Assembly (NCBI GenBank): GCA_964477695.1
Contig: CAYZFN010000212.1
Location: 10,974 to 74,973, forward strand
Length of the DNA: 64,000 nucleotides
Reading direction: 5' to 3'
From: an uncultured Enterobacteriaceae bacterium
Lineage (GTDB): Bacteria; Pseudomonadota; Gammaproteobacteria; Burkholderiales; SG8-39
Of this stretch, positions 24,459 through 35,363 are shown piece by piece. Position 1 is the stretch's first letter. Each line of letters begins with the position of its first letter. The notes beneath the pieces were generated by a model. The model had not been told where the DNA came from and made no database searches. It worked only from the letters and a program-made list of their open reading frames with translations. A program made the position numbers and the translations under genes.

Positions 24459-24998
24459 CTAGTGGGTCAGGCCCTCGAGCAGCTTCGCCAGATCGTCGGC
24501 GTGCTCTTCCTCCTTGGCGAGGATCTCCTCCATCAGCCGCCGCGTGGTCGGGTCCTCCTGGCCGAAGTAGCTGATCATCTCGCGGTAGCTGTCGATGGCG
24601 ATGCGCTCGGCGACCAGGTCTTCCCGGATCATCTCCTCGAGCGTGTTGCCTTCGACGTACTCCGCATGGCTGCGCGTCACGAGCCCTTCCGGCGCGAAAT
24701 CCGGCGCGCCGCCGAGCTGGGTGATGCGTTCGGCGATCTGGTCGGCATGCTGCTGCTCCTCCTGGGCGTGCTCGAGGAACTCCGCCGCCACGCTTTCCGC
24801 ATGGATGCCTTGCGCCATGTAGTAATGGCGCTTGTAGCGCAGCGTGCAGATGATCTCCGTGGCGAGCGCCTCGTTGAGCAGCCGCAGCACTACGTCCCGG
24901 TCGGCGTGGTAGCCCGGCGTGACCGCGCCCTGGGCGATGTGCTCGCGGGCCCGCCGGCGCAGCGTCTGGATGTCGGAGAGAAAGGCGCCTTGCGTCAT
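24459..24998 (-). CDS. Ferritin-like di-iron protein (bacterioferritin/Dps superfamily)
   Basis: ..LNEALATEIICTLRYKRHY..EFLEHAQEEQQHADQIAERI..EMIREDLVAERIAIDSYRE..EILAKEEEHADDL shows paired E..ExxH-type ligand helices. Start 7 nt after the upstream stop. Confidence 0.85.
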   Translation of the reverse strand: MTQGAFLSDIQTLRRRAREHIAQGAVTPGYHADRDVVLRLLNEALATEIICTLRYKRHYYMAQGIHAESVAAEFLEHAQEEQQHADQIAERITQLGGAPDFAPEGLVTRSHAEYVEGNTLEEMIREDLVAERIAIDSYREMISYFGQEDPTTRRLMEEILAKEEEHADDLAKLLEGLTH

Positions 24999-25005
24999 CG
25001 CGTGC

Positions 25006-25518
25006 TTACTTCGAGGTCGTGGTCGCGCGATTCGCGCCCGCGCCCGTGGCCGCATTGCGCTTGCTGTTGTCGGCCTTCGCGTGCTTCGCCTTGATGTCCG
25101 CCTTGGCGTGGTCGTAGTTCGCCTTCGCTTCCTTCTTGCAGGCGCTCTCTTCCTTGCCCTTCATGCTCTTGCACTTCTGCTCGGCCACCTTGTACTCGTG
25201 CTCGGCCTTCGCTTCGTCGACCTTGCGCTCGTGCGCCGCGGAGGGCTGGTACTTCTGCTCGATCTCGGCCTTCGCGACCTTCTCGTTGCCTTTGGCGTCG
25301 GCTTCGCACACCTCGTGCTCGTTGCCCTTCATCTCCTTGCACTTCGCGATCGCCGCCTTGTAGTCGGCCTTGGCATGGTCCTCGTCGGCCTTCTTCGCCT
25401 GGCGGTCGACCTTCGGCCGGTCCGCGCCGCTCGACGGCGAGGGGGTGGTTTGCGCCTGTGCCGCGCCGGCAAAGGCGAAGGCGACGGCCGCGGCGATGCT
25501 CAACAGTCTGAGTTGCAT
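25006..25518 (-). CDS. Secreted Lys/Ala/Glu-rich protein with two C-x10-C repeats
   Basis: Signal peptide MQLRLLSIAAAVAFAFAGAAQA. Internal duplication DEDHAKADYKAAIAKCKEMKGNEHEVCEADAKGN.. versus DEAKAEHEYKVAEQKCKSMKGKEESACKKEAKAN... AGGAGGA SD. Confidence 0.75.
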   Translation of the reverse strand: MQLRLLSIAAAVAFAFAGAAQAQTTPSPSSGADRPKVDRQAKKADEDHAKADYKAAIAKCKEMKGNEHEVCEADAKGNEKVAKAEIEQKYQPSAAHERKVDEAKAEHEYKVAEQKCKSMKGKEESACKKEAKANYDHAKADIKAKHAKADNSKRNAATGAGANRATTTSK

Positions 25519-25549
25519 GGCTATGTTTCCTCCTAGGTTGTGGGATGCG

Positions 25550-25714
25550 TTAAGGCCTTCTCAGCAGGCCCGCGACGAGCGAGACCAGGAAAAGAACCAC
25601 GAAAACGACGAACAGGATCTTCGCGATCTCCGCGGCTCCCGCGGCGATGCCGGTAAAGCCGAACACGGCTGCGATGATGGCGATGATGAAAAAGGCAAGC
25701 GCCCAGCTCAACAT
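25550..25714 (-). CDS. DUF1328 (YtjA/UPF0391) small membrane protein
   Basis: The 54-aa product [54 protein letters not shown] is near-collinear with E. coli YtjA. GAAGGAG SD. Below the 60-aa ORF-track cutoff as an independent ORF. Confidence 0.85.
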
Positions 25715-25757
25715 GACGAACTCCTTCGTAAATGGTGGGTAAAGCTGGAGAGGGGGC

Positions 25758-25773
25758 AGCAAACCGCGTGCCA
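25758..25773 (-). promoter_or_regulatory. Consensus sigma-54 promoter TGGCAC-GCGGT-TTGCT
   Basis: Perfect match to TGGCACG-N4-TTGCW on the minus strand. Predicted +1 is near 25747, giving a 33-nt leader with an SD before ATG 25714. Confidence 0.6.
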
Positions 25774-34219: not shown

Positions 34220-34227
34220 AGGTTGCT
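34212..34227 (+). promoter_or_regulatory. Sigma-54-type promoter candidate CGGCAT-AGAGG-TTGCT
   Basis: Correct GG-N10-GC spacing and a perfect -12 element TTGCT followed by a T-run. It overlaps the activator stop codon. Predicted +1 is near 34238, giving a 25-nt leader with a GGAG SD before ATG 34263. Confidence 0.5.
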
Positions 34228-34262
34228 TTTTCGTTGGGCGACTTTTCCTTCAGGAGCAAGCC

Positions 34263-34529
34263 ATGGCTAACGAGCAGACCAGCACCCGTAACCCGCAGCA
34301 GACCGTGGACCGGCTGAGCCAGTCCGCGCACCAGGCCGTCGACCGTGCGGCGAGCGCCGCGTCGGCATATGCCGAGCGCTTCGGCGAGAAGGGCGAGGAA
34401 TGGATGCAGATGCCGCAGGATTGGCTGGAGACGGCGCGCGATTACGTGCGTGAGAATCCGCTGCAGGCGATCGGCATGGCCGCCGCCGCCGGGTACCTGC
34501 TCAGCATCCTGATGCGCAGCCGCGACTAG
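34263..34529 (+). CDS. DUF883 (ElaB/YqjD/YgaM-family) membrane-anchored stress protein
   Basis: Hydrophilic N-terminus and a C-terminal anchor ..ENPLQAIGMAAAAGYLLSILMRSRD, as in E. coli ElaB/YqjD. Confidence 0.85.
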   Translation: MANEQTSTRNPQQTVDRLSQSAHQAVDRAASAASAYAERFGEKGEEWMQMPQDWLETARDYVRENPLQAIGMAAAAGYLLSILMRSRD

Positions 34530-34533
34530 GTTC

Positions 34534-34926
34534 ATGGAGCCCGCACGCAGGGCCGCGCCGGGGCTCGGCGACGCGCTCGCGCGCCTGATCGCCGAGGCGC
34601 GGCAGCTGCTCGCCGACTATGCGCTGCTCACCGTCCTCGACGCGCGGCGCGCGGCGATCCGCCTGGCGTGGATCCTCGGCGCGGTGCTCGTCGGCGCGGT
34701 GCTGATCGTCACTTCCTGGATGGGCCTCGTGTCGGCGGGCATCATGTTCGCGTGGGGCCACGGCGCGTCGTGGCCGGTCGCGCTTGGCATCGCCGCGCTC
34801 ATCAACCTCGTCGCGGCCGGCGTGCTCGTCTGGTTCACGCTCAAGCTTGCCAAGGAGCTGCCCTTCACCGCGCTCCTGCGCCAGCTGCGCGGCGATGCGC
34901 CCGAGCCGCCACAGAAAGTCACATGA
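34534..34926 (+). CDS. YqjE-like (DUF1469 / holin-X superfamily) membrane protein
   Basis: Two TM helices after an amphipathic N-terminus (..LIAEARQLLADYALLTVLDARRAA..). The position directly after the DUF883 gene mirrors E. coli yqjD-yqjE-yqjK. Confidence 0.7.
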   Translation: MEPARRAAPGLGDALARLIAEARQLLADYALLTVLDARRAAIRLAWILGAVLVGAVLIVTSWMGLVSAGIMFAWGHGASWPVALGIAALINLVAAGVLVWFTLKLAKELPFTALLRQLRGDAPEPPQKVT

Positions 34927-35363
34927 TCCCTCCCGACCAAGAGATCTACGAAGTCGAGAAGCGCATCGCCGAGCGCCGGCAGCGCGTCGAGACCGTGTTC
35001 CGGGAAACCGGCCGGCAGAGCGTGCGCGCGCTGACCTCGCCATGGGCGCTGGGCGCCGCGGCGCTGCTCGGCTTCGTCGTCGCGGGCGGCGTGCGCCTGC
35101 GCCACCGCGACAGCGCGCACGTCGCTCCGAGCACCAAGACAGCCGCGCAGGCGGGCACGATCTCGAGCATCGCCATGGCCGCGGCGACCTGGTTCATCAA
35201 GTCGCAATTCGGCTCGCCGGTGGAAATGGCGCGTTTCTTCATCGACAAGGTCCGCGCGAGGAAGGGCAAGCCGTCGATGGCGACGGCGCCCACGCTGCGA
35301 CCGGCGTCGGGTGTTCCCGACAGACTGCGACCGAGGCGTCGAGAAGCAACGACCGCCGGCTAG
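34923..35363 (+). CDS. YqjK-like protein
   Basis: ATGA overlap with the upstream gene. N-terminal helix EVEKRIAERRQRVETVFRETG followed by one TM segment (WALGAAALLGFVVAG). Third position of a yqjDEK-like operon. Confidence 0.6.
   Translation: MIPPDQEIYEVEKRIAERRQRVETVFRETGRQSVRALTSPWALGAAALLGFVVAGGVRLRHRDSAHVAPSTKTAAQAGTISSIAMAAATWFIKSQFGSPVEMARFFIDKVRARKGKPSMATAPTLRPASGVPDRLRPRRREATTAG

Follow-up and report, generated by a model that had tools for sequence, protein, structure and literature searches.

A probable sigma-54 stress regulon around an RpoN2-type paralogue in an uncultured Burkholderiales bacterium

Introduction

Two copies of rpoN, the gene for sigma-54, have been reported as common in multi-replicon Betaproteobacteria; they coexist in Ralstonia and are reported to do so in many Burkholderiales; the role of the second Ralstonia copy, rpoN2, was termed enigmatic in 2015 (PMC4371752). 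Here we describe a 64-kb stretch of DNA (hereafter, the window; G+C 69%) from an uncultured Burkholderiales bacterium (GenBank assembly GCA_964477695.1, contig CAYZFN010000212.1), in which an rpoN gene lies among homologues of stress genes that are preceded by sigma-54 promoter motifs. The window constitutes the evidence from the source genome. Comparison with related loci makes it probable, in our judgment, that these genes form the core of a conserved stress or dormancy regulon under sigma-54, organized around an RpoN2-type paralogue and an adjacent activator of the NtrC family.

Ralstonia rpoN2 (RSp1671; activators RSp1667 and RSp1668) resembles the window gene in the clade of its product, in having a sigma-54 promoter, and in the presence of an adjacent activator. 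Ray et al. (2015) located a sigma-54 site 63 nt upstream of rpoN2 and reported that rpoN2::lacZ expression was abolished in an rpoN1 mutant (PMC4371752), while Lundgren et al. (2015) described RSp1667 and RSp1668 as adjacent activators, with rpoN2 and RSp1668 as predicted targets (PMC4676750). However, no stress regulon has been described in Ralstonia, the RpoN proteins share only ~50% identity, and the window block is much larger, additionally including genes for ferritin, BON, SodB, LigD, kinase, and PAS-REC proteins.

Specialized RpoN paralogues are also found elsewhere, as in Rhodobacter sphaeroides (four RpoN), Bradyrhizobium, Rhizobium etli, and Xanthomonas (RpoN1/2), and on a plasmid of Bradyrhizobium DOA9 (RpoNp). 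Like the paralogue proposed here, these are associated with a distinct gene set and have a cognate activator encoded nearby; unlike it, they belong to Alpha- or Gammaproteobacteria, with regulons of nif, flagella, and pili. A 2026 paper has loosely tied RpoNp to stress adaptation (PMC13207237).

The output families of the window (BON, DUF883, DUF1328, and Dps/ferritin-like proteins, with CsbD in related loci) and its presumed physiology match those of the regulons of Escherichia coli RpoS, Bacillus SigB (CsbD), and alphaproteobacterial EcfG. Those regulons depend on sigma-70-family factors and have no ATPase activator, whereas the window has -24/-12 promoters that need an enhancer-binding ATPase. 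Additionally, the window BON protein has a single BON domain, unlike OsmY, which has two. Sigma-54 promoters for small envelope-stress proteins, with the activator encoded alongside, occur in the E. coli zraP/zraSR and pspF/pspABCDE systems, and the divergent zraP and zraSR promoters share an enhancer; however, the zra and psp systems rely on a single housekeeping sigma-54, act on one or two operons, and do not include a gene for a sigma factor. Within the open-access literature, we found no report linking sigma-54 with DUF883, CsbD, or BON, ligD with RpoN, or the pC3 replicon of Burkholderia multivorans with sigma-54. The paralogue, its self-promoter, and the activator are partly known already; what appears to be new is the conserved regulon of stress and repair genes.

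Conservation of predicted sigma-54 promoters

An earlier note on this DNA had listed five GG-N10-GC motifs, and all five are present at the positions and on the strands that it gave (Table 1). At four of the five, the extended-consensus G follows the -24 hexamer, as had been noted. The orientation and the Shine-Dalgarno sequence before each start were likewise borne out, a Shine-Dalgarno-like sequence being readable between motif and start codon at all five sites; the measured distances from motif end to start codon span 31-45 nt (DUF1328, 43; hydrophilin, 34; rpoN, 31; activator, 45; DUF883, 35).

A scan of one genome per species identified 80 loci encoding a relative of the window RpoN, each from a different species. 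Roughly 45 of these, with RpoN identities of 78-94%, are from metagenome-assembled genomes (MAGs) of uncultured soil and groundwater Burkholderiales and have nearly the same gene order; the distant loci, with identities of 45-62%, include Azoarcus, Methyloversatilis, Dechloromonas, Ralstonia, and Parapusillimonas. For each orthologue, the best sigma-54 score in the 250 nt upstream was recorded against a threshold of 12 bits, using a position weight matrix (PWM) that was written as an approximation of the published consensus. For rpoN, 73 of 78 loci (94%) had an upstream score of at least 12 bits, as did 94% of 31 loci for DUF1328 (38-60 nt ahead of the start) and 91% of 32 loci for DUF883; for the activator, the value was 61% of 46 loci, comprising essentially all close relatives. 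Six control genes from the same loci (the GFO oxidoreductase, sodB, the gene after rpoN, yqjE, the kinase, and DUF4383) reached this score in 0% of cases. Among the related loci, the spacers vary, but GG and GC are kept at the same distance from each other. Because the five motifs are conserved across species, they behave as real sigma-54 promoters would, and the proposed wiring of stress-gene homologues to sigma-54 is supported by phylogenetic footprinting, at 91-94% for these three targets as compared with the controls.

Conservation takes a different form at individual promoters. The DUF883 promoter, which overlaps the end of the activator gene, is conserved despite a variable activator C-terminus. 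The activator promoter is kept as TGGTA(C/T)GCAnnTTGCG in ~28 close loci, an unusual degree of spacer conservation; in the window, a perfect 13-bp palindrome, ACGCAAGTTGCGT, spans its -12 element and could be an autoregulation operator, with other species only partly palindromic at this site. Only the three closest species (L002-L004) have the hydrophilin promoter at the same location. The hydrophilin-BON-sodB operon of 21 other loci is instead headed by a csbD gene with a sigma-54 site in front of it, whereas the window and its three closest relatives are without csbD and have the sigma-54 site in the 3' end of the PAS-REC gene. Since the csbD-led operons carry their own sigma-54 site, this looks like promoter turnover in which sigma-54 regulation of the operon has been preserved. 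In these 21 relatives (compare L005-L018), csbD sits between the PAS-REC and hydrophilin genes, a place that corresponds to 26927-26944 in the window.

None of 34 loci (0/34) has a sigma-54 motif ahead of sodB, and its co-transcription with the hydrophilin and BON genes is inferred for this reason; the three genes probably form one operon (26945-28086). Clustering of open reading frames (ORFs) behind sigma-54 sites without reference to labels recovered rpoN, the activator, DUF1328, DUF883, CsbD, LigD, BON, GT4, and ferritin. In 6 loci of a more distant clade, a separate sigma-54 site belongs to the ferritin gene, which is last in the DUF1328 operon of the window.

Considered by sequence alone, the five sites are not equivalent. 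The window has 7 copies of TGGCACN5TTGCW with at most one mismatch where 1.17 are expected, and none of 100 shuffles reached 7; this class includes three of the five sites (DUF1328, hydrophilin, and rpoN). With at most two mismatches, 28 occurrences against 21.6 expected are not significant. The scan of shuffled controls that had been suggested thus shows enrichment in the stricter class but not in the looser one, and the earlier estimate of fewer than one chance match was too optimistic for the activator and DUF883 sites, which belong to the two-mismatch class. A claim of significance from sequence alone was accordingly rejected for these two, which rest on position and conservation. The PWM returned 15 window matches of at least 12 bits, as compared with 3.9 expected from first-order Markov simulations. 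Among the 13 window matches with strict GG and GC, 11 have the -12 C located 12-47 nt before a same-strand start codon, a target zone amounting to 2.9% of the position-by-strand space.

The RpoN2-type paralogue and the adjacent activator

The window rpoN encodes a sigma-54 protein with all three Pfam domains (AID, 1.7e-14; CBD, 2.9e-56; DBD, 7.6e-60) and a TIGR02395 score of 445 bits (cut-off, 277). The protein retains Region I and the HTH, and its RpoN box is ARRTITKYR. Its context is noncanonical, as had been claimed: the flanking genes are a divergent ligD and a glycine-zipper membrane protein gene, and lptB, hpf, and ptsN are not nearby. The glycine-zipper gene follows rpoN in 54 loci, Azoarcus and Methyloversatilis included. 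Only one of the 80 loci (L066) has the canonical order, kdsC-lptC-lptA-lptB-rpoN-hpf-ptsN, and counterparts of the L066 LptB, Hpf, and PtsN were found beside rpoN in none of the other 79. The L066 rpoN is also among the few without an upstream sigma-54 motif (4.3 bits).

In neighbour-joining trees, the window protein groups with Ralstonia RpoN2, the copy on B. multivorans pC3, and the proteins of Azoarcus, Methyloversatilis, and Dechloromonas, to the exclusion of L066. The window RpoN is 51.5% identical to Ralstonia RpoN2, 48.6% to the pC3 copy, 47.3% to the canonical L066 protein, and 39.7% to E. coli RpoN; L066 and E. coli RpoN share 48.4% identity. On this grouping, we class the window gene as RpoN2-type and as a probable second sigma-54 gene of its genome.

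In the adjacent activator, the aspartate of the receiver domain and both Walker motifs (A and B) are intact, and a GSFTGA loop and an HTH_8 domain are present; the GSFTGA loop variant is also found among Ralstonia activators (PMC4676750). Since its NCBIfam scores are all below the equivalog cut-offs (AtoC, 391/714; NtrC, 391/559; ZraR, 336/760), the activator falls outside every named subfamily.

Related arrangements are present in cultured species. On the Ralstonia solanacearum megaplasmid, rpoN2 lies near an orthologous activator (65% identity), followed by DUF1328 and a DUF883-like gene, with sigma-54 motifs. On pC3 (L083; NZ_CP143553.1, 298347-319753), the RpoN2-clade rpoN has a sigma-54 motif 47 nt upstream and neighbours encoding DUF892 (two copies), DUF1328, DUF3008, DUF3022, Ku, LigD, DUF3175, DJ-1/PfpI, CBS, PRC-barrel, and UdgX proteins; further sigma-54 motifs lie ahead of the DJ-1, DUF3175, and UdgX-Nramp genes.

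Candidate enhancer elements

Clear enriched words were recovered by k-mer analysis only in the rpoN/ligD and DUF1328/PAS-REC intergenic regions; results for csbD and DUF883 are confounded by coding sequence. Between rpoN and ligD, CGGTAATTGCTACAGG and GCAAGnCTTACAGC are nearly invariant in ~45 loci, and 47 of 73 loci contain the word GTAATT (background 0.007). Between DUF1328 and PAS-REC, the window has the palindrome GTAGCGTTTCCGCTAC (25843-25858) and GATTACA (25803-25809, minus strand); 27 loci retain the blocks CCTGTAGCGGAAAnGCTAC, TTCTTACA, and GCAACGCTTACA, GTAGCGnnnnCGCTAC is conserved together with the latter two, and TGTAGC is found in 21 of the 27 loci (background 0.017). The words TGTAGC and TTACA are common to both regions. 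We regard GGTAATTGCTACC/GCAAGnCTTACA, GCAAGnCTTACAGC, GTAGCGnnnnCGCTAC, TTCTTACA, and GCAACGCTTACA as candidate activator sites.

As an enhancer consensus common to all promoters, GCAANNCTTACA was rejected, because it matched 13 window positions with two mismatches when 16 were expected. CTTACA is found once in the window (34152-34157), within the activator gene and ~55 nt ahead of the DUF883 promoter. In the relatives, this hexamer is also part of conserved blocks upstream of the rpoN and DUF1328 promoters; with 3.5 occurrences expected per window, this is suggestive only.

Possible short-leader promoters of ligD and PAS-REC

Two further sigma-54-like motifs face rpoN and DUF1328 across these intergenic regions (Table 1). 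Of 38 loci, 34 have the GG-N10-GC motif before ligD, and 10-16 nt, most often 13-14, separate its -12 C from the start; this start is ATG in every case, an in-frame TGA lies just upstream, and no Shine-Dalgarno sequence is present. This geometry predicts a sigma-54-dependent ligD transcript that would be leaderless or carry a leader of 1-3 nt. Before PAS-REC, CCGGCA(T/C)GnCTCCTGC(A/T) is conserved in ~17 loci, with the -12 C 12-19 nt ahead of the predicted start. Because this element is conserved, the DUF1328/PAS-REC region mirrors the rpoN/ligD region as a divergent sigma-54-like pair with shared blocks. Several PAS-REC starts are GTG, a poor fit to leaderless translation. We found no example in the open-access literature of a sigma-54 promoter combined with a leaderless mRNA; the pairing would be an unusual one if the ligD geometry were confirmed.

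Proposed regulon and alternatives

In the regulon that we favour, a stress signal would be sensed by the membrane hybrid PAS histidine kinase, possibly with participation of the PAS-REC protein. The kinase would phosphorylate the adjacent NtrC-family activator, a pairing suggested by gene position. The activator would in turn bind the conserved upstream elements and use ATP to open sigma-54 holoenzyme complexes at the -24/-12 promoters of rpoN, its own gene, and the DUF1328/Cys-repeat/ferritin, hydrophilin/BON/SodB, and DUF883/YqjE/YqjK operons, and probably of ligD and PAS-REC. The regulon would thereby exceed the five promoters first listed, with at least three more candidate sites in the window in addition to those of ligD and PAS-REC. 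Since rpoN and the activator gene are both behind sigma-54 promoters, the module would amplify itself once primed, either by basal RpoN2 or, as in Ralstonia, by the housekeeping RpoN1. Its products would protect the membrane and periplasm, detoxify iron and superoxide, and repair DNA by end joining: a stationary-phase, osmotic, or desiccation programme of the type that E. coli runs via RpoS. A self-contained, autoregulated module had been suggested previously; autoregulation finds support in the widespread rpoN self-promoter, whereas self-containment is doubtful, because the Ralstonia data suggest that RpoN1 primes rpoN2.

The island thus offers a testable role for betaproteobacterial RpoN2, as a stress, dormancy, and DNA-repair regulon with named kinase, activator, promoters, and targets, and the module is conserved in R. 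solanacearum and on pC3 of B. multivorans, which are cultured and genetically tractable. If the proposal is correct, genes of the general-stress type would lie behind an ATP-dependent sigma-54 switch with tight off and on states rather than a sigma-70-family stress sigma factor, with a bearing on the ways in which the abundant, uncultured Burkholderiales of soils endure drying and starvation. More tentatively, RpoN2 and its activator might be the master regulator of an RpoS/SigB/EcfG-type programme across the Betaproteobacteria, which would deploy membrane and periplasmic protectants, ferritin, SodB, and nonhomologous end joining (NHEJ) via LigD (with Ku in Burkholderia), and in which some mRNAs (ligD, perhaps PAS-REC, and a small hydrophilin) would be leaderless; we regard this extension as possible but would not bet on it.

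Several observations weigh against a regulon governed by RpoN2. Three sites (activator, DUF883, and hydrophilin) are weak by sequence alone, at 12.3-12.7 bits, and the PWM only approximates the consensus. No conserved upstream element was detected at the activator promoter by k-mer enrichment, and the elements upstream of DUF883 and the hydrophilin gene fall in coding DNA, which confounds their conservation. In Ralstonia, rpoN2 needs rpoN1, and rpoN2 mutants had no phenotype in the conditions tried (PMC4371752).

The Ralstonia results are the principal basis for an alternative in which the promoters are real but are served by RpoN1 and several activators; RpoN1 could serve all of them, given that dependence and the lack of a mutant phenotype. 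Under this scenario, rpoN2 would be one more target with a minor or redundant function, and the clustering would reflect co-inherited stress genes. NtrC is also predicted to target Ralstonia rpoN2 (PMC4676750), the promoters fit the general sigma-54 consensus with no obvious paralogue-specific signature, and the shared upstream element is restricted to rpoN/ligD and DUF1328/PAS-REC. However, rpoN2, the activator, and stress genes are tightly linked over 79 noncanonical loci from several betaproteobacterial families, and linkage this persistent makes it hard to accept that RpoN2 is irrelevant. The RpoN paralogues of R. sphaeroides, moreover, are not interchangeable and are each paired with their own activators, according to work cited in PMC3162934. 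We therefore consider an exclusive role for RpoN1 rather unlikely.

It is also conceivable that the window gene is the sole rpoN of its genome, relocated from the lptB-hpf-ptsN context, and that the island belongs to a single ordinary sigma-54 regulon. All close relatives are fragmentary MAGs, which leaves room for this reading. Against it, the window RpoN clades with known second copies (Ralstonia RpoN2 and pC3) to the exclusion of the canonical betaproteobacterial RpoN, the latter is the closer of the two to E. coli RpoN (48% as compared with 40%), and two rpoN copies are reported as common in multi-replicon Betaproteobacteria, as cited above; a relocated single gene is accordingly improbable.

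That the motifs are chance matches in GC-rich DNA, or are conserved through coding constraint or as a terminator at 34211-34226, can be set aside with little hesitation: the unenriched two-mismatch class, the overlap of two sites with coding sequence, and the weak terminator-like stem at 34211-34226 fit such a view, but this stem is not conserved in the relatives, terminator-like matches number 4 against 5.8 expected, and neither the concentration of strict matches ahead of start codons nor the cross-species retention of dinucleotides and spacing upstream of targets, absent from controls, would be expected by accident. The terminator reading of this stem was therefore rejected. A crude scan for sigma-70 consensus promoters in the 24-36 kb region gave 0 matches against 0.8 expected, a comparison that is weak at 69% G+C, and no Rfam RNA families were detected in the intergenic regions.

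The genes behind the sites belong to families found in the general-stress regulons of E. coli and Bacillus: BON/OsmY, DUF883/ElaB-YqjD, and DUF1328/YtjA, together with CsbD in the relatives. The earlier note had placed osmY and the elaB/yqjD/ygaM family in the E. coli sigma-S regulon.

Gene map and further motifs

Gene identities were assigned by Pfam and NCBIfam profile searches, and several small genes, as well as the rpoN and sodB starts, were set by hand. Joint Genome Institute (JGI) gene calls on metagenome contigs encoding an identical RpoN match the resulting map (Table 1), including the 57-aa ORF. Most of the gene labels first given to this block (ferritin-like, DUF1328, BON, SodB, RpoN, activator, and DUF883) are upheld by Pfam, and SodB does lie within the block. 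The label of a YflT-like protein for the gene after rpoN does not stand: no Pfam family (E up to 0.01) or NCBIfam family was found for 28072-28635, and an identity as YflT/general stress protein 17M was rejected, the only NCBIfam match being to a glycine zipper at 16.9 bits.

Table 1. Genes, predicted sigma-54 promoters, and candidate enhancers of the window (positions in nt)
Position	Strand	Feature	Evidence
24459-24998	-	Ferritin/Dps-like protein, last gene of DUF1328 operon	Pfam Ferritin 1.1e-28
25006-25518	-	Secreted Lys/Glu-rich protein with repeated Cys motif	Syntenic in 25 loci
25550-25714	-	DUF1328 (YtjA-family) small membrane protein	Pfam DUF1328 1.3e-15
25758-25773	-	Promoter of DUF1328/Cys-repeat/ferritin operon, TGGCACGCGGTTTGCT	Exact consensus match, 21.5 bits
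25803-25858	.	Candidate enhancer (upstream activating sequence) between divergent DUF1328 and PAS-REC promoters	Conserved blocks
25868-25884	+	Weaker sigma-54-like motif before PAS-REC, CCGGCATGTCTCCTGCT	10.6 bits; -12 C 18 nt from start
25901-26926	+	PAS-REC protein, degenerate DHp, without ATPase domain	Pfam PAS_3, Response_reg
26895-26910	+	Promoter of hydrophilin/BON/SodB operon, in 3' end of PAS-REC gene, TGGCACGCCTCGTGCA	One mismatch, 12.7 bits
26945-27118	+	57-aa hydrophilic protein (hydrophilin)	ORF also called by JGI
27115-27444	+	BON lipoprotein	Pfam BON 2.8e-17
27472-28086	+	Fe-superoxide dismutase (SodB)	Pfam Sod_Fe
28072-28635	-	Glycine-zipper membrane protein, 8 nt 3' of rpoN	
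28644-30017	-	rpoN, RpoN2-type sigma-54 paralogue	Pfam AID, CBD, DBD
30049-30064	-	rpoN promoter, TGGCACGTTCCCTGCA	One mismatch, 14.8 bits
30107-30141	.	Candidate enhancer between rpoN and ligD	GGTAATTGCTACC (30141-30129), GAAACGGTTACAGC (30120-30107), minus-strand reading
30147-30163	+	Sigma-54-like motif before ligD, CGGGCTCGGGTTTTGCT	12.9 bits; -12 C 13 nt from ATG
30175-32598	+	LigD, three-domain NHEJ ligase	Pfam LigD_N, DNA_ligase_A_M, DNA_ligase_A_C, LigD_Prim-Pol
32776-32791	+	Activator-gene promoter, TGGTACGCAAGTTGCG	Two mismatches, 12.5 bits
32837-34219	+	NtrC-family response-regulator activator (REC, AAA+, HTH_8)	Pfam Sigma54_activat 4e-70, Response_reg, HTH_8
34212-34227	+	DUF883-operon promoter, overlapping activator stop codon, CGGCATAGAGGTTGCT	Two mismatches, 12.3 bits
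34263-34529	+	DUF883 protein	DUF883_C 1e-08
34534-34926	+	PF07332-like (YqjE family) membrane protein	22.9 bits, sub-threshold (cut-off 28.4)
34925-35363	+	146-aa protein	No family found
35415-38300	+	Membrane hybrid PAS histidine kinase	Pfam PAS_4, HisKA, HATPase_c, Response_reg; syntenic in 25 loci
51187-51203	-	Further motif before GT4 glycosyltransferase (50113-51168), CGGGCATGCGGATTGCA	15.0 bits
56573-56589	-	Further motif, CGGGAACGCGGTTTGCA	13.6 bits; -12 C 42 nt before second BON-domain gene (56251-56532)
61152-61168	-	Further motif, TAGGCACGAGCCTTGCA	17.0 bits; -12 C 12 nt before ATG of 54-aa hydrophilic ORF (61141-60977)

For the ferritin-like protein, NCBIfam matches to bfr and Dps are all below cut-off, and the Cys-repeat protein belongs to no family in Pfam or NCBIfam. 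The DUF1328 protein is 92-100% identical within the close family. In the translation of the PAS-REC gene, the DHp-like helix has LNELQ in place of the usual phospho-acceptor motif SHELR; because of this replacement and the missing ATPase domain, autophosphorylation is unlikely, and the hybrid kinase may have this protein as its partner, either in a phosphorelay or as a decoy. The E. coli gene order is yqjD-yqjE-yqjK, and the operon at 34263-35363 follows the YqjD/YqjE/YqjK order, with a clear DUF883_C match, a sub-threshold PF07332 match, and a third gene that has no family.

Three additional sigma-54 motifs lie further along the window. The GT4 glycosyltransferase gene is followed on the same strand by genes for a GDE-like glucosidase (glycogen-debranching-like), a MEDS protein, a hybrid kinase, and two receiver proteins, as assigned by Pfam, and GT4 homologues occur behind sigma-54 sites in 7 loci. 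The product of the second BON-domain gene matches Pfam BON at 9e-08, and the 54-aa hydrophilic ORF has no NCBIfam family. Two other motifs were observed ahead of plausible gene starts: one at 8572-8588 (plus strand, 16.1 bits), with the -12 C 14 nt before the start of a ROK-like gene (8601), and one at 10040-10056 (minus strand, 14.5 bits), with the -12 C 15 nt before that of a DedA/VTT-like membrane protein (10026-9238). Taken over the whole window, the distances from promoter to start appear bimodal, at 12-20 nt and 33-47 nt.

A final observation concerns the genomic surroundings of DUF1328. The adjacency of ytjA and osmY, stated in the earlier note, was confirmed in E. coli K-12 (L084), where the order is prfC-osmY-ytjA-yjjU (patatin-like). 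On the Ralstonia megaplasmid (L001, 13425-19254), DUF1328 lies beside the rpoN2 activator and within a few kb of prfC and a patatin gene; this proximity of ytjA, prfC, and patatin genes may be a remnant of an old synteny.

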